NCBI GenBank assembly: GCA_964636045.1 | Contig: CAZWRH010000001.1 | Location: 1-48,248 of the forward strand | Origin: an uncultured Gammaproteobacteria bacterium | Lineage (GTDB): Bacteria; Patescibacteriota; Microgenomatia; UBA1406; HO2-37-13b | Length of the DNA stretch: 48,248 nt | Direction of reading: 5' to 3' | Shown: piece after piece, positions 8,090 through 41,830 of the stretch | How the letters are laid out: each line of letters begins with the position of its first letter | How positions within the stretch are numbered: position 1 is the first letter of the stretch | Program-made: the position numbers and the translations under genes | The notes under the pieces: generated by a model | The model's database searches: none | Told to the model about the DNA's origin: nothing | Seen by the model: the letters and a program-made list of their open reading frames with translations, nothing else

Positions 8090-10186
8090 ATGAAAATAAT
8101 CAATGAATCCATGCAAATTGGAGACAAGACTTTATCATTTGAACTTGGTAGACTTGCAACCGCAACTGATGTATCAATTTTAGGAAGAATGGGTGATACT
8201 TGTGTTTTAGTTACAGTTGTTGTTGGAAAAGAAAATCCTGATATTGATTATTTTCCACTAACTATTGAATATGTTGAAAAGTTATATGCTGGAGGAAGGA
8301 TTAAAGGTTCAAGATGGGTAAAAAGAGAAGGAAGACCATCTGATGAAGCTATTTTAATTGGTAGACTTATTGATAGATCAATAAGACCATTATTTCCAAA
8401 AGAATTTAAAAGACAAGTTCAAGTAATAATTACTTTATTATCTGTTGATGGAGAAAATTCTCCAGATATTTTATCAGCGATTACAACCTCTGCAGCAGTT
8501 CATTTATCAAGCATTCCATGGAATGGACCAATTTCAACTTTAAGAGTTGGATTCATAAAGTCAAATGGCGGAGAAGGTGATTTAATAATAAATCCTGATG
8601 AACATGATCAAAAATACTCACTTCTTGATCTTGTTGTTTCTTCTTCAGAAGAAAAAGTAGTCATGATTGAAACAAAAGCTGAGATTGTTAAAGATCAAAC
8701 AGTTATTGATGGTATAAAACTTGCCAAAGAAGAAAATAAAAAAATTATTAAATTTATTGAAGGTCTTAGAGAAAAAGCAGGAAGACCAAAACTTGAAGTA
8801 AAATCAGATAGCGATATTGCAAAAATTGTTGAAATTTTGAAAAAAGATTATTCAAAAGAAATTGATACTTATTTATCACATAAAGCTGATAGTGAAAAAA
8901 ATGATAATTCAATTTTGGACGAAGTTGCAAACAGCATTTTAATCAAATATCCAGAAGAATTTGATAGAAAAAAAATCAATGAAGCTTTAACTAAATATTC
9001 TTATAAAAAAGTTAGAGATGATATTTTAGAAAGACAAAAAAGAATTGATGGAAGAAAGATTGATGAAGTGCGAGAACTTTATATTGAATCTTCAATTTTA
9101 CCAAGAACTCATGGAAGTGCTATTTTTCAAAGAGGTCAAACTCAAGTATTATCAATCGCAACTTTAGGTTCTCCAACTTTAGAGCAATTAATTGAGGGAC
9201 CGGAGGGAGAAGAATCAAAAAGATATATTCACCACTATTACATGCCTCCATATTCAGTTGGAGAATGTGGAAGAATGGGATCAACATCAAGACGTGAAAT
9301 TGGACATGGTGCATTAGCTGAAAAAGCTCTTGAACCAGTGCTTCCAACTCAAACAGAATTTCCATACGCAATTAGAGTAGTTTCAGAAGTTTTATCTTCA
9401 AACGGATCAACTTCAATGGCATCAACTTGTGGATCATCTCTTGCCTTAATGGATGCAGGAGTTCCAATAAAAGATGCTGTTGCTGGAATTTCAGTTGGAC
9501 TTGTTTCAAAAACTGATGATGATTATGTTTTATTAACTGACATTATTGGTTATGAAGATTTTGCTGGAGAAATGGATTTTAAAATTGCTGGAACTAAAGA
9601 TGGTATCACAGCAATTCAACTTGATGTTAAAAATAAAGGTTTAACAGAAAAAATGATCGATGAAACTTTTAAAAGAGCAAATACAGCCAGAATGATGATT
9701 CTTGAAAAAATGAATAAAGTTATTTCAGCTCCTAGAAAAGAAGTTTCAAATTATGCACCAAAAGTAGTTATTTTAACTCCTCCTGCTGATAAAATTGGAG
9801 AAATAATTGGACCAGGTGGAAAAAATATTAAACATATAATTGCTCAAACTCAAACAGACATTAATATTTCAGATGATGGAAAAGTAAGTATTTCTGGAAT
9901 TGATATGGAAATGGTTAATAAAGCAGTTGAACTTATTAATAATGTTTATAGAATGGTTGAGGTTGGAGAAGAATTTGATGGAGAAGTAAAAAGAATCTTG
10001 CAATTTGGAGCTTTTGTTGCATTTTTACCAGGAAAAGAAGGTTTGGTTCATGTTTCAAAAATGGGCAAAGGTTTTGTAAAAGATCCACATGACGTTGTCC
10101 AAATTGGAGATAAAGTAAGAGTAAGAGTAAATCAAATTGACAATCAAGGAAGAATCAATTTAGAGATGATTTCTGATAAAAAATAA
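8090..10186 (+). CDS. pnp: Polyribonucleotide nucleotidyltransferase (PNPase)
   Basis: Two RNase PH domains (...RIDGR..., ...GSTSMASTCGSSLALMDAGVP...), a KH domain (GPGGKNIKHI) and a C-terminal S1 domain. rpsO-pnp synteny is preserved. Confidence 0.97.
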   Translation: MKIINESMQIGDKTLSFELGRLATATDVSILGRMGDTCVLVTVVVGKENPDIDYFPLTIEYVEKLYAGGRIKGSRWVKREGRPSDEAILIGRLIDRSIRPLFPKEFKRQVQVIITLLSVDGENSPDILSAITTSAAVHLSSIPWNGPISTLRVGFIKSNGGEGDLIINPDEHDQKYSLLDLVVSSSEEKVVMIETKAEIVKDQTVIDGIKLAKEENKKIIKFIEGLREKAGRPKLEVKSDSDIAKIVEILKKDYSKEIDTYLSHKADSEKNDNSILDEVANSILIKYPEEFDRKKINEALTKYSYKKVRDDILERQKRIDGRKIDEVRELYIESSILPRTHGSAIFQRGQTQVLSIATLGSPTLEQLIEGPEGEESKRYIHHYYMPPYSVGECGRMGSTSRREIGHGALAEKALEPVLPTQTEFPYAIRVVSEVLSSNGSTSMASTCGSSLALMDAGVPIKDAVAGISVGLVSKTDDDYVLLTDIIGYEDFAGEMDFKIAGTKDGITAIQLDVKNKGLTEKMIDETFKRANTARMMILEKMNKVISAPRKEVSNYAPKVVILTPPADKIGEIIGPGGKNIKHIIAQTQTDINISDDGKVSISGIDMEMVNKAVELINNVYRMVEVGEEFDGEVKRILQFGAFVAFLPGKEGLVHVSKMGKGFVKDPHDVVQIGDKVRVRVNQIDNQGRINLEMISDKK

Positions 10187-10201
10187 TCTACAATCATCTA
10201 T

Positions 10202-33891: not shown

Positions 33892-34746
33892 ATGAGGCGC
33901 TTAAGACTAACTATAACCCTAAAAGAATCTACAGTTTTAGATGTTGATAAATTAATCGATGGACAAAAACTTAGAAATAGATCTCATGCTATTGAGTATA
34001 TTCTTAACCAAAATTTAAACCAAAAAGTATATAAAGCAATAATTCTTGCTGGAGGTCGAGGAACAAAACTTAGACCATACACTTTAGAAACTCCAAAATC
34101 TCTTCTTTTAATCAAAGGACAACCTATTATTAAATATTTAATTGAGAATTTAAAAAAATCTGGAGTAACTGATATTATGATCTGCGTTGGCCATTTGGGA
34201 AATAAAATAAAGGATTATTTAAAAGATGGAAAAGAATTTGGAGTAAAAATTTCTTATTCAGAAGAAAAAAAACCACTTGGAACTGGTGGTGCAATTTCTA
34301 AGATAAAAGATTTTATTGATGATAAGCCATTTTTAGTTTTACATGGAGATATTCTTATTGATTTAAATTTAAAAGATTTGCTTGAATATCATAGCGAACA
34401 GGGTGGCTCAATTATAGGAACAATTGCATTATCTCAAGTCAATAATTCTTCAATGTGGGGACAGTTTAGAATGCATGGTACAAAAATAGTTAATTTTATT
34501 GATAAAACAAAAAAAGGAGAAGAAGAGAGTCATTTAATTAATACTGGAGTTTATGTTTTTGAAAAGAAAATATTTGATTATTTTCCAACTGGCCAAAAAA
34601 CTTTTTTACTTGAAGATATTATAAAAAATTTAATTAAAGATAGAAAAATTACTGGCTTTGTTTTTGAAGGTCAATGGTTTGATGTTGGAACGCCAGAAAC
34701 TTACGAAGAAGCGATAAAATCTTTTTTATTAAAATCCTCCACCTGA
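33892..34746 (+). CDS. Fusion protein: N-terminal ribbon-helix-helix (CopG/Arc/MetJ-like) domain + sugar-1-phosphate nucleotidyltransferase
   Basis: aa 1-45 read MRRLRLTITLKESTVLDVDKLIDG...NRSHAIEYILNQNL (beta-alpha-alpha RHH pattern). This is followed by ILAGGRGTKLRPYTLETPKSLL (the NTP_transferase G-loop) and ...LGTGGAI...VLHGDIL.... Confidence 0.7.
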   Translation: MRRLRLTITLKESTVLDVDKLIDGQKLRNRSHAIEYILNQNLNQKVYKAIILAGGRGTKLRPYTLETPKSLLLIKGQPIIKYLIENLKKSGVTDIMICVGHLGNKIKDYLKDGKEFGVKISYSEEKKPLGTGGAISKIKDFIDDKPFLVLHGDILIDLNLKDLLEYHSEQGGSIIGTIALSQVNNSSMWGQFRMHGTKIVNFIDKTKKGEEESHLINTGVYVFEKKIFDYFPTGQKTFLLEDIIKNLIKDRKITGFVFEGQWFDVGTPETYEEAIKSFLLKSST

Positions 34747-35049
34747 TAATCCAAAAATTGTTGCAATAATTTTTGTTAAAACATAAGAACTAATCAGTAA
34801 TATAAATCCAATTAATGCAGCTGTAATTTTTGCTTTTCCGTTTTCAATTTTTTTAGCATCACCAAAAGACAATAAATAATTGTATCCACCCCAAATTAAA
34901 TATAAAAAAAGCAATATTCCTCCAAGTGGAAAAAGAAAGGTTAGAGTTTTGGTTATGACTGATCCAATATTGTTAAAGCTACTATCAAGAGGTCCTTGAA
35001 TGGTTTGACTTCCAACTGTGATACTTTGAGCTAAGATTTTATTTTCCAT
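34729..35049 (-). CDS. Small two-TM protein resembling VirB2/TrbC-type 'T4SS pilin' proteins common in CPR genomes
   Basis: LFPLGGILLFLYLIWGGYNYLLSFGDAKKIENGKAKITAALIGFILLISSYVL: two hydrophobic helices around a short G-D-x-K-K loop. The family assignment is from memory, not a search. Confidence 0.5.
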   Translation of the reverse strand: MENKILAQSITVGSQTIQGPLDSSFNNIGSVITKTLTFLFPLGGILLFLYLIWGGYNYLLSFGDAKKIENGKAKITAALIGFILLISSYVLTKIIATIFGLSGGGF

Positions 35050-35690
35050 ATTGTATTAACTTTAATAATTATATAAAAAAATAAATTAATTATTATTGAT
35101 ATTAAAAAGTATTTATTTATGTCTATTAAAAAATTTGTAAAAGTGTTTATTTTAAAAATAGATCTTATATCTATGTTTAAAATATAAAAAATACAACCCA
35201 ATATCAATATAAACCCAATAAAATAATATAAATCTTTTAAATCTTCTTTAGAAGAAAACATGGATGAAGATATTGAAAAAAATAAATAGCAAAATAATAG
35301 GTTTGTTATTAAAGAGTTTGATGGAAAAAAATTAAAATGGAATATATAATAAAAAAATCCAATCCCAAAAAGTAGGGGAGATATTCCAATAACAAATCCT
35401 CTTAAAAAATCAGTTTTTTCAATTGAAACAGATCCAAGAGTTACTTCTTTATTTCCAATTTTTGGAATTAAATCAATTTTGTTTATCTTTGTTAACAGAA
35501 ATAATGCACTAAATAGATGAGATAATTCATGAAAAACGGTACCAGGTAAATATAAAATCGATATTAAATAATAGCTAATTTTTGAATTTTTAAAACTTTT
35601 ATAAAATAAATAGAAGATTTTTTTTTGAATATAAATTGAAAAAAAATAAATTACAAGTATTTGCAGAATAAGTAAAAAAAAATATTCCAT
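35031..35690 (-). CDS. Polytopic membrane protein with an HExxH motif (M50B/site-2-protease-like putative zinc metalloprotease)
   Basis: GTVFHELSHLFSALFL, with HExxH at 35517-35531 at the edge of a TM helix, followed by a ...KEVTLGSVS... loop and 4-5 further TM helices. Confidence 0.45.
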   Translation of the reverse strand: MEYFFLLILQILVIYFFSIYIQKKIFYLFYKSFKNSKISYYLISILYLPGTVFHELSHLFSALFLLTKINKIDLIPKIGNKEVTLGSVSIEKTDFLRGFVIGISPLLFGIGFFYYIFHFNFFPSNSLITNLLFCYLFFSISSSMFSSKEDLKDLYYFIGFILILGCIFYILNIDIRSIFKINTFTNFLIDINKYFLISIIINLFFYIIIKVNTIWKIKS

Positions 35691-36049
35691 TATTTAGCTT
35701 CAGATGTGGCAGTTTTTGCCTCACTTGTTGCTTTTTTGATTGGGGTTACTATTATCGTTGGAGAAGGTGACGCGATCTTTGCTTCTGGGGTAGATTTTTT
35801 TATTGTGCTTGGTGTTGGTGTAGATAAAACTTCTTCCTCTTCGGTTGTATTTGGGATAATAACCTCTTCATTTTGAGGTTCTTCAATAATAGGTGGTTGA
35901 TTCTTTTTTTGAATATAAATAAATAAAATTACTGAAAAAATAGCTGCAACTATTGTTAAAGCAACTAACAAATAATAATTCATATTAGAAGAATTCTTAT
36001 TTGGATTTTTTATCTTTTCTAAATCAATTGGTGTAAAATTTTTTTCCAT
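35690..36049 (-). CDS. Single-pass membrane protein with a Pro/Thr/Glu-rich extracytoplasmic tail (tandem ATSEAK)
   Basis: 119 aa with a TM helix at about aa 25-47. Its start is 1 nt after the AAA+ gene's stop, and its own stop overlaps the next start (TAATG). Confidence 0.5.
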   Translation of the reverse strand: MEKNFTPIDLEKIKNPNKNSSNMNYYLLVALTIVAAIFSVILFIYIQKKNQPPIIEEPQNEEVIIPNTTEEEEVLSTPTPSTIKKSTPEAKIASPSPTIIVTPIKKATSEAKTATSEAK

Positions 36050-36050
36050 A

Positions 36051-39000
36051 TTATATTTCTTTATTATTAGTGCTTAAACATTTAGGACAAATAATCGTTG
36101 AATTTTTTACTATTTCAGTTTCAAAGTTGTTTTGACATTTTTCACATTGAAATTTCTTTATAATTTTATTTTGCATTTTTTTATCAGAAAATTCAAGCTT
36201 TTCAATATTAAATATAAAATGTTCTCCTTCAAAATCTAAATTTATCTGATCTGATTCTTCAAGTTTTTTTTCAATGATTAGAGTTGATATTGGGTTTTCA
36301 ATCAAATTTTGGATAGTTCTTTTTAGTGGTCTAGCACCATAAATTGGATCAAATCCAACCCTAACAACCTCTTTAATTGCATTCTCTTTATAGTTGAATC
36401 CGATATTTTGTTCTTCAAGTAATTTTTTTAAGCCTTTTAATTGAAGATCAACAATCTTTGTCATGTGTTGATATTTTAATGGTTCAAAAATAATTACTTC
36501 ATCAAATCTATTAATAAGTTCTGGTTTAAAAAATTTTCTAAGTTCCAACATTACTTTGCTTTTCATATTTGAATAAGTATTATTTTCAAGTTCGACTTCT
36601 TTTTTCTTTTTTTGTTCAAGTTCTTTTTCAAGAGGAAAATCTTTTCCAAAATATTCTTTAAGTAAACTCATTTTGAAGTTTTCTTCATTAATTTTTCTTA
36701 TCCAAATCTTTTCTCCTGCGATTATATATTCATTTCCAGATGGATCAAAGGTGTGAATGTCCCAATAATTAAATGGTAAATTCAAATCTTCTTTATTTTT
36801 AAAATAATTTTTTAAAGTACCAGTTTCCCAATCATTTTGACCTTCTTTTCTTTTCCAATATCTATCTTTAAAAGTGATAATTTCATATTCATCCGCAGTA
36901 AATGTATGGGTTTTTAGTTTTGCAGTTGGTAGCTGTTCATCAGGTGAGTCTGGCATAGCATTAACTACAACAGAATCTTTAAAATATTCAATTAGATTAA
37001 TAGTTTTCCATATTTTTGAAGTGGTAGACGATCTTATATATGCAATTTCTTTTAATGTAATTATTTCAATTCCTTTTTGAGAAATTGCGTGAGTGTCAAA
37101 ACCAGAAATTGGAAAGCTATAATTTGAATCTTCAATTTTTTCTCCAGCAAAATAATCATAAAGCATTTTACTTTGCCATGTTGTTGTTTTTGTTGAATCT
37201 AAATTTGGTTGTTTTTCAAAAATTTTATTTATGATTGTTAACATTTCTCTTCCTCGAGGTGAGAAAGTATATGTTGATAAGATAGTTGGTTCTTCAATTT
37301 CAACTTTCCCAGTTTTTAAAATTTCATCTTGAATAAGTGTACTTCCTATATTTGAAGTACAAATAATTACTGTATTTTTAAAAGAAATAGTTCTTCCTTT
37401 ATTATCTGTTAGTCGTCCATCATCAAGTATTTGAAGAAGGATATTAAAAATATCTGGATGAGCTTTTTCTACCTCGTCAAATAAAACAACAGAGTAAGGT
37501 TTTCTTCTAACTGATTCGGTAAGTTTTCCACCTTCATCATATCCAACATATCCAGGAGGTGCACCAAGTAATTTAGCAACTTCATGTTTTTCCATGTATT
37601 CAGTCATATCAAGCCTTACAATAGCTTCTTCCTGGCCAAATAATATTTCTGCTAAGGTTTTAGCAAGTTCTGTTTTACCAACTCCAGTAGGTCCCATGAA
37701 AACAAAACTTCCGATTGGTTTTTGAGTATTTTTAAGTCCAGCACGTCCTCTTCTAACAGCTTGTGCTACTGCTGAAACTGCAACTTCTTGATTAATAAGT
37801 CTTTCATGCATAATATCTTCAAGCTTTGCAAGTTTTTCAGTTTCTGAATCAGAAATTTTTGTGACTGGTATACCAGTCCAACGACTAACAATATCTTTAA
37901 TAATCTCAACACTAACAGATGAAGTTGTCTGACCTTTTTTTATTTTAAATTCTTCTTGTTTTTGATTTAACACTACTTGTAAATCGTCGATTTTTGGTTG
38001 AAGAATTCCAATTTTAACTTTATTTAGTGCTTTTTGAGCTTCTTGAAGTTCTTGTTTATATTCAGAAAGTCTTTCTTCAGTACTTCTTATTTCTTCAGGT
38101 AAAGAAATAAGTGGCAATCTAACAGCTGCTGCAGATTCATCAATTAAATCAACTGCTTTATCAGGTAAAAACCTATCTCCAACATACCTTTTTGATAATT
38201 TGACAGCTGCTTCAAGGGTATCATCAGGAATTTTTACCCGATGATATGATTCGTATTTGTCTCTTGTTGCTTTAAGCATTTTTATTGCTTGCTCTTCGGT
38301 AGGTTCAGGAACTAAAACTGGTTGGAATCGTCTCTCTAATGCTGCATCTTTTTCAATATATTTTCTATATTCTGTTAAAGTTGTTGCTCCAATTATTTGA
38401 AGTTCTCCTCTAGCGAGTGAAGGTTTTAAAAAATTTGAAGCATCAAGCGTTCCTTCAGCACCTGCTCCAGCTCCTACTAAATTATGAATTTCATCTATAA
38501 ATAAAATTATTTTTCCTTTTGCATTTTTAACTTCTTCGATTAATGACTTCATTCTTTCTTCAAATTCACCTCGATGAGAAGTACCGGCTAAAACGCTCAT
38601 TAAATCAAGTTGTAATATTTTTTTATCAAGCAATGATTCTGGAACTTCTTTTTTTACAATTTTTTGAGCTAATCCTTCAACTATAGCTGTTTTTCCAACT
38701 CCAGCTTCTCCAACTAAGACAGGATTATTCTTAGTTCTTCTTGATAGATTGTGAATAACTCTTTCAATAACATCCGATCTTTCAACAACAGGATCAAGAA
38801 GTCCTTGTTGAGCCTTTTGAGTTAAGTCGTTTGTAAATAATTCTAAAACACTTTTTTTCTTTTCTTTTTCTTCACCATTTACTCCTTCTTTTTTACCTGT
38901 AATTTTTTTATTTAATTCTTCTTTTTTTATACCGAGTTTAACCAAGATGTTAGCGGCAACACCTTCTTGTTCTTCAAAAAGTGACAATAAAATATGTTCT

Positions 39001-39569
39001 GGAGAAATAAATTCAAAACCCATTTTTCTAGCAGTAACAAGTGCTTTATCTAAAATTCTTTTAACTCTTGGTGATGGCTGTGGGTTGGTTGGTGCGGTTC
39101 CTTTTTTATAAATTTTATCTAGTTCTTGATCAATTATTTGAGGTTGTATTTTAATATCAACAAAAAATTTATATATTTCTGGATCAGTTAATAGTCCATG
39201 AAGCAAATGCTCAGTATCAACAAAATCATTTTGAAGATCTTTAGCTTTATTTTGAGCTATAACAAATACTTTATTGGATCGTTGTGTAAAATGAGTCATT
39301 AGATCAAGATCTGGTGCTTGAGGTGTTTTTTGAACAGGAGTCTCTTTTTTTTCTGTAGCAACAATTGGAGTCTCTTTTTTTTCTTCTTCTTCAATAAAAT
39401 GTGCTGTATTCAAATTGTTAGTTGATTTTTGAGTTACCTCAGCAACTTCTTCTTTAATAACAACTTTTTCATCTTGTTTGATGTCTGGCGGATTATTAGA
39501 AACAGCTGTTACTGGTTGATTTGGAGATGGGTTTTTAGAATTTGAAAACATATCAAAAATACCTGCCAT
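36051..39569 (-). CDS. Atypical ClpB/ClpC-family double-ring AAA+ unfoldase: disordered N-tail, Clp_N repeats, D1, short M-domain, D2 with a ~240-aa four-repeat insertion, C-terminal zinc ribbon
   Basis: Clp_N repeats are present (...TEHLLHGLL..., ...[10 protein letters not shown]...). D1 has Walker A GEAGVGKT and Walker [10 protein letters not shown]2 has [37 protein letters not shown] and the pore loop GYVGY, plus GARPLKR sensor-2. The preferred start is ATG 39569 (MAGIFDMF...). The track start at 39605 is a TTG that coincides with a TTGACA -35 box. Confidence 0.9.
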
Positions 39570-39576
39570 AATTTTC

Positions 39577-39605
39577 ATTATTAAAAAAATAAAAACATTT
39601 GTCAA
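39577..39605 (-). promoter_or_regulatory. Promoter TTGACA-17-AATAAT, 7 nt before the AAA+ gene ATG (39569)
   Basis: On the minus strand, TTGACA lies at 39605..39600, followed by a 17-nt spacer. AATAAT lies at 39582..39577, followed by gaaaatt and the ATG. Confidence 0.55.
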
Positions 39606-39634: not shown

Positions 39635-40375
39635 ATGAAATTTAGTAGGGGAATAATAATTTTTATATTTGTTTTTTTATTTTTAACTAAAATTTCAAAT
39701 CCAGTTTTTGCAGAAACTTCTTCTTTGCAAAACTCAAATTCTGCAAGTTATTTTGATATTTTTTATGATTTAATAAAAAAACTTTTAACTTTTTCTACAG
39801 ATGACTTAAATAGCGAAACTACCACGTCAAGTTCTGTGGGAGGTGGTGGAGCAGGAGCTTCTCGAAGCTGGGATCCATTACCAAATATTGATGGAAATAC
39901 TTTGGAGCAAAACAAAGCATTAGCTGAACAAATTTTGGCAAATTCTAATATAGATTTAAATTGTTATACTGATAGTTGTGGTCATAGTTCAGCTGAAGTA
40001 ATTTCTTCTTTAAAAAATGGTCAAGCACCTGTTATTTGTTCTGGGGGTTGTTCAAATTGTGCTGCTGGAGGACCTTCTGGATCAACAACAATGAATCCAA
40101 AAGTTTTGCAAGGAATTTTAGAAGTTGGTAAAACTGATTCTATTTGTATAACTGCTTTATCTAATGGAGTTCATAGTGTTGGAAGTACTCATTATGATGG
40201 AAATGCAGTTGATATTGATGCAGGAGGAAAAAGCGCTGGAGATTTGCAAAGAATTAGAAATCAATTACAAAGTTATTGTGGTTGGGCTATTTGTGAGCCT
40301 CCAGGAGGAGGATCTGATCCAAGTTGTTCAACTGCAAGTCATATTCATTGGACTTGTGCACCTGGTGGTGATTAA
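39635..40375 (+). CDS. Secreted Cys-rich LAS/M15-type peptidoglycan peptidase (VanY/D-Ala-D-Ala carboxypeptidase-like fold)
   Basis: Signal peptide ending ...NPVFA|ET, the S-x-H-x-x-G-x-A-x-D motif as STHYDGNAVD, a downstream H-x-H (SHIHW), and 10 Cys. Confidence 0.6.
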   Translation: MKFSRGIIIFIFVFLFLTKISNPVFAETSSLQNSNSASYFDIFYDLIKKLLTFSTDDLNSETTTSSSVGGGGAGASRSWDPLPNIDGNTLEQNKALAEQILANSNIDLNCYTDSCGHSSAEVISSLKNGQAPVICSGGCSNCAAGGPSGSTTMNPKVLQGILEVGKTDSICITALSNGVHSVGSTHYDGNAVDIDAGGKSAGDLQRIRNQLQSYCGWAICEPPGGGSDPSCSTASHIHWTCAPGGD

Positions 40376-40380
40376 TTTTT

Positions 40381-41223
40381 ATGAGAAAAATTTTGTTTAT
40401 TTTAATTATATTTGCTTCAATTTTGGGAAATTCTGTTTTTGCTGTAGAAACAAGCAATGGTCAAGTGAATCAAAATGCTGTTGGAGTTTTTATAGATTTT
40501 TTAAATAAATTTCTAAATGCTCCTGCTGAAAATGATGATGTTGGTTCAAATTCACAAAATAAAACAAATGGATTGTCTCCTTTTGCAGGATCTGTTACTG
40601 ATATTAATCAATTAATATCTCCAGACACAATGTCTCCTGAGGCGGCAAATATGATGGGTGCAGTTGCAGGGTGTATTAATAATAGAGCCGCTTATGAAGA
40701 GGCAAGTAGATATACAGGGGCACCTTGGCAAGTTTTAGCAGGTATTCACTATCGAGAAGGAAATTGTAATCCAAATGCTTCTTTAGTATCAGGGCGGCCA
40801 ATCGGAGAAGCGGAGCCTGACATGGAGTATAACTGTTCGTCTGCAATTGAAAATGGTTTAGCTATTCCAGTTAATGGTGGTTGTGGCTTTGCCACTTTAA
40901 CACAAAGTGCAATTTATGCGGCTAGACATTTAATTGATAAGATTGGTAAAGTTCCTCAATCTTTTGAAGAGTTAGGAACTGCATTATCAAGATATAATGG
41001 AGGAGGAAATTCTAATTGTGGGAAGACGCCTTATCCATATTGTCCTCCAGCTTTTTCTGGTGATGACGATCCATATCCAATGGCGCTTTTGGATGAAAAA
41101 CACAAAACAATGTACGTTATATATTGTGAAGATGGGGTAGCAAATACTGCCGGATGTCCAAGAGTTGATCAAAATCCTGGAGTATTAACAGCTATTTCTC
41201 TTATATCATTTGCAACAAAATAA
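40381..41223 (+). CDS. Secreted Cys-rich lysozyme-like / SLT-like lytic transglycosylase candidate
   Basis: Signal peptide ending ...NSVFA|VE; WQVLAGIHYREGNCNPNAS (an SLT-like catalytic-Glu context) and ...AARHLIDKIG...LGTALSRYNGGG (an SLT-like AYNAG region). Confidence 0.45.
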   Translation: MRKILFILIIFASILGNSVFAVETSNGQVNQNAVGVFIDFLNKFLNAPAENDDVGSNSQNKTNGLSPFAGSVTDINQLISPDTMSPEAANMMGAVAGCINNRAAYEEASRYTGAPWQVLAGIHYREGNCNPNASLVSGRPIGEAEPDMEYNCSSAIENGLAIPVNGGCGFATLTQSAIYAARHLIDKIGKVPQSFEELGTALSRYNGGGNSNCGKTPYPYCPPAFSGDDDPYPMALLDEKHKTMYVIYCEDGVANTAGCPRVDQNPGVLTAISLISFATK

Positions 41224-41224
41224 A

Positions 41225-41830
41225 ATGGAAAAACTAGATGATAAAAAAGTTTTTATAATCTTTTCAGTATCAATTGTTTTAATGATGCTTTTAATTCTAT
41301 TTTTTTCTATTAATACTAAAAAAATAAATGTTGCTAACAATGAAGAGTCTCAATCTGAATCAAATGTAAAAAAAGACTATTTAGCCGAACAAAGAAATAA
41401 AAACGCTAATTTACCAATGCCTATAAAAAATATTCCTACACTTTCAGTAAGTGAAGGAAAAGGAGTTGATATAGCCTCAGATGAAGTTGTTTCTTCGAAA
41501 ACAGAAATTTCTAAATTATCAGAAAAATTACCTTTTAATAAAAAAATTACTACTTCTAAAGGATTATCTATTGAGATTATGATTCCAGAACAAAAGCTTC
41601 AAGATAATGATTTTTCATTGACAGTTTATATATTTGGTATTAATTATGAGGTTGAAAATGATTCTCGAGATTACCTTATTCAAAAAGTTTCTTTTCAAGA
41701 AGGAGCAAAAGAAGTGTTTAGTTTTTTAAAGCAAAATAATATTGACGTTACAAACTTAATAGTAAGATGGGGAGATAGAAAAAAAATTCGGGATAAAGCA
41801 GAGAATTGGCTTTTAGAGAGCGTAATGTAA
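41225..41830 (+). CDS. Membrane-anchored hypothetical protein (N-terminal TM, extracytoplasmic domain)
   Basis: ORF with an ATG at 41225 (MEKLDDKKVFIIFSVSIVLMMLLILFF...). The track start at 41210 is a TTG inside the previous gene. Confidence 0.55.
   Translation: MEKLDDKKVFIIFSVSIVLMMLLILFFSINTKKINVANNEESQSESNVKKDYLAEQRNKNANLPMPIKNIPTLSVSEGKGVDIASDEVVSSKTEISKLSEKLPFNKKITTSKGLSIEIMIPEQKLQDNDFSLTVYIFGINYEVENDSRDYLIQKVSFQEGAKEVFSFLKQNNIDVTNLIVRWGDRKKIRDKAENWLLESVM

Follow-up and report, generated by a model that had tools for sequence, protein, structure and literature searches.

The window analysed here, the whole 48,248-nucleotide stretch of contig CAZWRH010000001.1 (assembly GCA_964636045.1, positions 1 to 48,248 of the forward strand), belongs to a record named 'uncultured Gammaproteobacteria bacterium' that the Genome Taxonomy Database (GTDB) places in Microgenomatia (UBA1406; HO2-37-13b). 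The source is an uncultured ultra-small bacterium of the Roizmanbacteria group. The window has a low G+C content (~27%) and encodes on its reverse strand a Clp/Hsp100 ATPase whose second AAA+ ring (D2) is interrupted by a long insertion containing four tandem repeats. The mechanical open reading frame (ORF), from which all residue numbers are taken, covers 36051..39605 and opens with TTG to give 1184 aa. The true start is almost certainly M13 at position 39569, because an independent public assembly calls an identical 1172-aa product and homologues of the gene, hereafter clp, begin MAGFFDFIK. Pfam domains, all above their gathering cut-offs, follow in the order Clp_N (double repeat), AAA, AAA_lid_9, AAA_2 and ClpB_D2-small, which is the class-I order of an N-terminal double repeat, a first ring (D1) with its lid, and D2 with its small domain. 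Motifs read from the sequence show intact Walker A and B boxes in both rings and an aromatic D2 pore loop, GAPPGY[VI]GY, kept in 59 of 59 family sequences. Among PDB sequences, the best match was Bacillus subtilis ClpC (797 bits), with residues 4–665 aligned without interruption from the N-domain across the M-domain to a point just beyond sensor-1. The alignments of ClpB and Hsp104 are instead split in two at the M-domain, which points to a ClpC-type architecture with a short M-domain. No NCBIfam equivalog cut-off was reached, the top scores being those of ClpB (938 bits; 937.7 against 1232.1 for TIGR03346 and 780 against 1417 for NF008118) and of ClpG and ClpK (746 and 759 bits for NF033607 and NF033606, both against 1900). 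Membership of the class-I Clp/Hsp100 family, as a ClpC-like two-ring unfoldase with a short M-domain, is well supported, and the ClpB/ClpC-type identity given in the initial annotation of the window, made by eye from the sequence alone, was correct.

The motifs, coordinates and gap length read in that annotation were also accurate. The D2 sensor-1 strand (residues 743–755) ends at position 37341, the conserved D2 motif on the 3′ side of the insertion (residues 1028–1037) starts at 36524, and the 272 residues between them compare with ~35 in E. coli ClpB. The AAA_2 match is split by this insertion, breaking at residue 763 (profile position 135 of 166) and picking up again beyond it. When the PDB search was repeated with the repeats deleted, E. 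coli ClpB aligned as far as residue 728 (TSNLGSDLIQER) and picked up at 733 (DYAHMKELV), so the whole insertion stands in for four ClpB residues, 729–732. Under the same conditions, the ClpA alignment stopped at residue 609, B. subtilis ClpC restarted at residue 675, omitting 666–674, and the ClpB–ClpA chimera 5ofo restarted four residues later than wild-type ClpB. In ClpA, ClpC and ClpX, the helix-loop-helix at the D2 tip carries the tripeptide IGL, VGF or IGF that docks onto ClpP, and the same element was reportedly transplanted to build BAP, the ClpB–ClpA chimera of 5ofo. From these alignment limits it is well supported that the insertion replaces the tip bearing the ClpP-docking tripeptide in those proteins, which is the position originally proposed. 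An intein or other mobile element was considered as its origin and set aside, since the reading frame runs on through the insertion, which is conserved across 88 or more species genomes. The window insertion had no Pfam match at E ≤ 10, and no blades (repeat units) were found in other ORFs of the window or of the loci examined.

The four tandem repeats, which begin at residues 777, 837, 898 and 949 (the closing LLKEYF ends at position 36648), are statistically supported: all six pairwise Smith–Waterman alignments are collinear and score 4.2–9.1 standard deviations above 500 shuffles, and a repeat hidden Markov model (HMM) iterated on homologues detects each of the four window copies at E = 1e-16 to 1e-18. 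An AlphaFold2 (AF2) model of residues 743–1043, built with a 33-sequence alignment of database fragments (a 39-fragment alignment was also used), was compact (pLDDT 86.2, pTM 0.80) and was made up of a short helix, four repeat units with four β-strands and one short helix apiece, and a 34-residue helix returning into D2. The propeller formed by these units is attached by a 12-residue linker on one side and by the long helix on the other, the N-terminal ~17 residues of which extend a helix conserved in ClpB. Foldseek searches of the PDB returned almost exclusively hemopexin-like four-bladed propellers as top matches, namely the hemopexin-like (PEX) domains of MMP-1, -2, -9, -12, -13 and -14, hemopexin, vitronectin and the plant albumins LS24 and CP4, with E = 4e-8 to 1e-6, TM-scores (normalised to target) of 0.60–0.73 and 208–249 aligned columns spanning all four blades. 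It is well supported by the predicted structure that the four repeats form one divergent hemopexin-like four-bladed β-propeller of ~220 aa (Table 1). The initial annotation, which had recognised no known domain in the repeat, was mistaken on that point, since the AF2 model, Foldseek and the profile comparisons below identify a hemopexin-type blade; its count of 24 modules per hexamer stands as far as four repeats per chain are concerned, and would be better described as six four-bladed propellers.

Table 1. Positions of the Clp/Hsp100 gene, its domains and the adjoining membrane-protein genes in the window (residues of the 1184-aa ORF)
Feature	Residues	Position	Strand	Remarks
Clp/Hsp100 class-I ATPase gene		36051..39569	-	1172 aa from M13 (MAGIFDMF)
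N-terminal extension	13-100	39306-39569	-	Conserved peptide M-[AS]-G-[FI]-F-D-F-I-K, then low-complexity stretch
D2 AAA+ large domain up to sensor-1	629-763	37317..37721	-	Walker A GPTGVGKT, Walker B VVLFDE, pore loop GAPPGYVGY; Pfam AAA_2 positions 1-135 of 166
Whole insertion	756-1027	36525..37340	-	272 aa, between D2 sensor-1 strand and PELINRF
Blade 1	777-820	37146..37277	-	HMM E = 1e-17; four strands and short helix in AF2 model
Blade 2	837-876	36978..37097	-	HMM E = 1e-16; AF2 model; preceded by FP-x-x-GFDTH, containing ISGF
Blade 2-3 linker	877-897	36915..36977	-	V-x-N-A-[ML]-P-D-x-P-[DE]-E-Q-L-P-T; model pLDDT > 90
Blade 3	898-936	36798..36914	-	HMM E = 5e-18; AF2 model
Blade 4	949-987	36645..36761	-	HMM E = 1e-16; AF2 model; begins YWDIHTF
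Return helix, blade 4 back into D2	~992-1025	36531..36632	-	AF2 helix at model positions 250-283, pLDDT 75-85
ClpB_D2-small	1043-1122	36240..36479	-	Pfam PF10431, 79 bits
C-terminal zinc ribbon	1154-1176	36078..36146	-	CxxC-x15-CxxC; weak Pfam Zn_ribbon_8 match below gathering cut-off
Three small membrane-protein genes directly after clp		34729-36049	-	Co-directional; overlapping or 2-bp-spaced starts and stops

A blade profile (39 positions from 117 blades) searched exhaustively against 1.84 billion representative proteins matched only 242 at E ≤ 1e-3. The best matches outside Clp were proteins with an N-terminal signal or transmembrane segment and exactly four blades, which are probably secreted: DUF2961 proteins, GH39/GH42-like hydrolases and a C39-like peptidase, some of them with a dockerin. 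Their repeats read IDAAYFDxxGGYTVIKGDRYWYRxxxxxxWYTNTLxSAYY, and the named carriers are Candidatus Beckwithbacteria (DUF2961) and Candidatus Dojkabacteria (GH39), both Patescibacteria. Profile–profile alignment with hhalign linked the Clp blades to DUF2961-type blades (99%, E = 4e-18) and to Patescibacteria IDAAY...YTVIKGDRYWYR blades (97%, E = 1e-10). One of the carriers passes the Pfam Hemopexin model directly (P0125, 24.0 bits against a gathering cut-off of 21.3) and another falls below it (P0124, 18.3 bits). As the Clp blades themselves have no direct match to Pfam Hemopexin or to PDB hemopexins, their homology to canonical hemopexin is transitive and fold-based, and membership of the hemopexin family would rest on this chain of sequence links. 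The carriers, whose blades always number four, belong to the same bacterial radiation and are nearest to the Clp blades in sequence. Such secreted Patescibacteria enzymes are the likely source of the Clp propeller domain; unlike it, they are probably extracellular and are hydrolase-attached, and their DUF2961 members have the repeats ahead of the C-terminal portion of the DUF2961 match. Many weaker profile matches covered only positions 4–17 (an FSPDG-like hairpin) in many-repeat proteins; we took them as a generic β-propeller signal, not as specific relatives. Weak PSII_BNR/Ycf48 matches occurred in just 3 of 69 homologous insertions.

Compared with the PEX domains of hemopexin, matrix metalloproteinases (C-terminal domains), vitronectin and plant PA2/LS24 (PF00045), the Clp domain shares the four tandem repeats (~45 aa; 40–50 aa across the comparison), the four strands and short helix of each unit and, in the predicted structure, the four-bladed fold. 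It also shares the motif logic: [IV]-D-[AS]-[AH] in the inner strand, the motif G-x-x-[YV]-W-x-R, and blades that close with an aromatic residue. In contrast to those domains, it is cytoplasmic, is inserted within another domain instead of appended to one, and has a highly conserved blade 2–3 linker. The disulfide joining blades 1 and 4 of animal PEX domains is missing, the insertion having no cysteine at all, as expected for a cytoplasmic protein. Among the probably secreted proteins, P0089–P0092, P0096, P0097, P0102, P0106, P0120, P0124–P0126, P0129 and P0143 carry four-repeat sets mostly missed by Pfam, which suggests an under-annotated family of bacterial hemopexin-like domains in Patescibacteria.

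In a scan of one genome per GTDB species, 88 loci encoded the insertion, of which 80 were kept, placing it in at least 88 species genomes, mainly of Roizmanbacteria and Microgenomates. At most loci the gene is full-length (1200–1650 codons) with two Walker A motifs and the C-terminal CxxC...CxxC ribbon. The insertion might have proved a common and already annotated Hsp100 feature: it is indeed lineage-wide in Roizmanbacteria and Microgenomates but unannotated, and database names for the family are 'hypothetical protein' or 'AAA family ATPase'. Four blades are present in ~70 of 75 insertions, in homologues at 40–60% identity; a count of five results when blade 1 is split by a variable loop. Eight blades occur in five of the 75 (L069, L070, L071, L073 and L076) and in P0025, and the insertions of L075 and L079 are of similar length. 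In these eight-blade insertions (532–567 aa), one set of four blades follows another, and a NALPDAPDEQLP linker is present in both. Otherwise, length varies between 260 and 395 aa, with the variation confined to the inter-blade linkers and the blade-1 loop, which lies before the last strand of that blade.

Conservation across the insertion is uneven. The blade 2–3 linker is its most conserved stretch, with V, N, P, D, P, E, Q, L and P invariant in 69 sequences and a mean majority fraction of 0.85, the level of the flanking ATPase core; the SPRGRE hairpin of blade 1 and the STTxK-x-W loop of blade 2 are likewise nearly invariant among homologues. This concentration of conservation in the linker and two loops argues for a selected function with defined surfaces. 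A neighbour-joining tree of the D2 flanks, built with a single gain or repeated losses in mind, was unresolved and sensitive to rooting, and we make no claim from it.

Loci with sensible names belong to Roizmanbacteria, Woesebacteria, Microgenomates or a 'Patescibacteria group'. Dozens of third-party metagenome-assembled genome (MAG) records titled 'uncultured Gammaproteobacteria bacterium' (L001, L002, L004 and others) carry the Microgenomates-type gene and synteny, as do single MAG records titled Weeksellaceae and Limisphaerales; those titles look wrong in taxonomic terms, the Gammaproteobacteria ones evidently so. Protein-database matches P0001–P0080 are all fragments of less than 750 aa, and full-length genes exist in the genomes. 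At L017 (186–4045), clp is split into ORFs of 748 and 490 aa by a frame disruption in D2.

Close relatives without the insertion have the same D2 and mostly the same zinc ribbon and no propeller; at the insertion site they carry a low-complexity loop of 35–143 aa rich in K, E, D, Q and P. Here, too, the [LIV]-G-[FL] tripeptide of ClpP-coupled unfoldases is missing from all loops apart from one chance VGL, and the window insertion contains none, as the initial annotation had stated. Its nearest match, ISGF, is present as described, yet is not a docking loop: it forms part of F-P-x-x-G-F-D-T-H, whose aligned counterparts are L-P-x-x-Y-W-D-I-H in blade 4 and x-I-D-A-A in hemopexin-type repeats, so that the GF falls on the inner strand of blade 2. 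Because the relatives without insertion also lack the tripeptide, the propeller would not have displaced a working ClpP loop; it would have arisen in one already released from that role and given to expansion. A tblastn search with E. coli ClpP found no clpP in the 48-kb window or in 87 loci (~1.2 Mb of flanking sequence). With no docking tripeptide, and only a disordered charged loop at this site in the relatives, the protein appears to act without ClpP, and the clade looks ClpP-independent.

The D2 loops of insertion-less P0052, P0057, P0060, P0063 and P0066 share a recurring P-[SA]-[FS]-A-K-A-S-x-G-K, found again in the blade 1–2 linker of L003 (~10150–10200), and P0063 additionally has SHSERSEES. 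The motifs suggest in-frame translation of short palindromic repeat elements, with the loop as a landing site.

Outside the insertion, the gene resembles ClpC (of B. subtilis and S. aureus, and ClpC1 of M. tuberculosis) in its order of Clp_N, D1, a short single-wing M-domain (one coiled-coil wing, ~55–70 aa), D2 and D2-small. It differs in having a propeller of ~220 aa instead of the VGF loop (and none of the flexible [LIV]-G-[FL] loops that follow D2 sensor-1 in ClpC, ClpA, ClpE and ClpX), a ~90-aa, probably disordered N-terminal extension, a C-terminal zinc ribbon, and SHR in place of KYR in the D1 pore loop. The M-domain is about half the length of that of ClpB (~120 aa), which is why ClpB aligns in two stretches. 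ClpB/Hsp104, ClpG, ClpK and ClpL are two-ring Hsp100s that lack the ClpP tripeptide and work peptidase-free, and this functional class is most likely the one shared here; we know of no Hsp100, these included, with a folded domain in the D2 helix-loop-helix. The zinc ribbon, located after D2-small and folded in the AF2 model, is kept in most homologues with or without the propeller. To our knowledge, a zinc ribbon at the C-terminus is not a known feature of class-I Hsp100s; those of ClpX and ClpE are N-terminal.

The D1 pore loop reads [AT]-S-H-R and not the K-Y-R of ClpB, ClpC and ClpA, a Tyr-to-His change (H344, 38574–38576, reverse strand) found in 59 of 60 family sequences; insertion-less P0053 and P0066 also have ASHR. 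Taken with the intact D2 pore loop, this suggests D2 as the main translocating ring. Between the MAGFFDFIK-type peptide and Clp_N lies a low-complexity stretch of ~90–150 aa that is probably disordered, and the N-terminal extension might function as a tether, in autoregulation or in a degron-like way.

Taken together, we consider it probable that this is a ClpC-like Hsp100 with a hemopexin-like propeller at the tip of D2 that acts independently of ClpP and uses its propellers as a protein-binding platform on the exit face. Homology of the insertion site would place six propellers per hexamer on the trans (exit) face of D2, and a 625-aa AF2 model of D2, propeller and zinc ribbon (pTM 0.76) suggests a defined rather than floppy placement. 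Like ClpB, ClpG or ClpL, the enzyme would unfold or disaggregate proteins on its own, and its propellers would capture a partner, a regulator or the substrate as it emerges on the exit side. Contact would be made by invariant surface elements of the propellers, chiefly the NALPDxP[DE]EQLPT linker but also the SPRGRE hairpin and the STTxK loop. The ATPase, hexamer and binding roles are putative, as deduced from sequence. The six discs could form a closed third tier under D2, as by our estimate of dimensions the attachment points in a hexamer lie about one propeller diameter apart. Doubtful, in our judgement, is a further elaboration in which these discs would form a closed ring that docks a non-ClpP partner, such as a membrane peptidase or channel (e.g. 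the HExxH multi-transmembrane protein often encoded immediately downstream) or envelope or pilus machinery encoded in the vicinity. Ultra-small episymbiotic bacteria would then have gained, by capturing a hemopexin domain of extracellular type, a hitherto unknown means of coupling a Clp unfoldase to a downstream acceptor.

Several observations weigh against the platform interpretation. PF00045 Hemopexin matched neither the window insertion nor any of 69 homologous insertions at E ≤ 1, and the blade profile matched no hemopexin among PDB sequences. The gene neighbourhood identified no partner: the HExxH gene, tried as a propeller-specific partner, was present in 37 of 56 informative propeller-bearing loci (tblastn failed to detect it in the other 19) and also beside the insertion-less relative L083, so it is neither universal nor exclusive and serves as a lead only. 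The clpP search covered the window and flanking loci only, and the ring on the exit face is deduced from the homology of the insertion site.

An alternative that we regard as unlikely is that the propellers regulate oligomeric state, binding each other so as to stack hexamers tail-to-tail or lock an inactive resting assembly whose release gates activity, by analogy with the resting state imposed by the ClpC M-domain and with ClpL ring dimers. The PEX domains of MMP-9 and MMP-14 are established homodimerisation modules, with the dimeric MMP9 domain (1itv) among our Foldseek matches. Conserved patches probably lie on both propeller faces, and no external partner was found, all of which such a regulator would accommodate. 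There is, however, no direct evidence for it, relatives without the insertion manage without such a device, and the eight-blade variants would be harder to fit into a symmetric ring–ring interface.

The propeller might instead sense a small ligand or ion, binding a metabolite or metal and signalling to the D2 ATPase through the two helices flanking sensor-1 and through sensor-2/D2-small; its insertion is placed immediately between the sensor-1 strand and the helix that runs on to the PE[LF]xNR motif. Hemopexin binds heme, and plant hemopexin-fold albumins have been reported to bind polyamines and heme. The fold family includes binders among known structures (hemopexin, 1qhu and 1qjs; vitronectin with Ca/Na, 7rj9 and 7u68; plant albumins, 3lp9, 3oyo and 6ix1), and Asp and His residues are conserved on the inner strands of the Clp blades (D-T-H, D-I-H and K-T-H). 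We nevertheless find this distinctly improbable, because ligand-binding residues could not be located, because conservation peaks in a proline-rich linker at the surface, as is more usual for protein contacts, and because hemopexin needs two propellers to bind heme.

It is very unlikely that the propeller is a passenger, a stable self-closing domain with adjacent termini captured by an expansion-prone loop and merely tolerated. The loop of the relatives is clearly permissive, and the inter-blade linkers keep acquiring low-complexity inserts; even so, the four blades are retained across at least 88 species genomes at 40–60% identity, there are invariant surface motifs, one linker is as conserved as the ATPase core, and the whole four-blade unit has been duplicated in one subclade. 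Least credible of all is non-canonical docking in which the propeller or its x-G-F motif would contact ClpP or a ClpP-like peptidase as the unfoldase half of a protease, for although the site is the canonical docking position and the G-F before blade 2 is nearly invariant (L017 even reads ILGF), the residue before the glycine varies (S, Q, L or F), the GF aligns with a buried inner strand and not a flexible loop, relatives without the insertion have no tripeptide, no clpP was found in the window or 87 loci, and a 220-aa disc would sterically replace the flexible loop that ClpP clefts accept.

The favoured interpretation, a propeller platform at the exit face, has precedents in part. The helix-loop-helix under D2 decides to what Hsp100 proteins and ClpX hand unfolded substrate, and has so far been known only as a short flexible loop in ClpP-coupled members or as a stub in ClpB-type ones. 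In BAP this element, at the same site after D2 sensor-1 on the trans face as the IGL, IGF and VGF loops, is said to be exchangeable as a module that decides what docks under the ring; there the exchanged element was a flexible hydrophobic loop, whereas here it is a folded propeller that has arisen naturally. In the PTEX complex of Plasmodium, the D2 exit face of HSP101 docks onto PTEX150/EXP2, a non-ClpP partner, to hand over unfolded protein, which gives a precedent for a partner at this face; HSP101 has no propeller and docks via its D2 surface and the 'claws' of its partner.

A hemopexin-like propeller at the Clp D2 docking site appears undescribed: we found no report of the architecture in the literature searched, and it is not in Pfam. 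If correct, a naturally evolved, conserved and folded domain at this site would mean that evolution can refit the exit face with a modular surface for docking, and would point to a new partner or regulatory mode in the proteostasis of Patescibacteria, whose genomes are reduced and poorly understood. It would also extend the rare four-bladed hemopexin fold to a cytoplasmic, domain-inserted setting, and brings to light a Patescibacteria family of hemopexin-type repeats that Pfam hardly detects. As a single-chain protein, it could in principle be expressed recombinantly.

The three small membrane-protein genes that directly follow clp encode a 119-aa protein with a transmembrane segment and low-complexity sequence, a 219-aa multi-transmembrane protein with the motif HELSH, for which a Peptidase_M50B-like match was not significant (E = 0.25), and a 106-aa T4SS_pilin protein (PF18895, 38 bits). 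The pilin-like gene, an amino-acid kinase gene and a recF-like gene follow clp whether or not it encodes the propeller. Upstream and divergent on the forward strand (39635–41830) are three genes for proteins of 246, 280 and 206 aa with N-terminal hydrophobic segments. No significant Pfam match was obtained for any of them, and the 246-aa and 280-aa proteins are rich in cysteine; in 8–9 related loci, homologues of the 280-aa and 206-aa proteins are likewise encoded upstream of clp.

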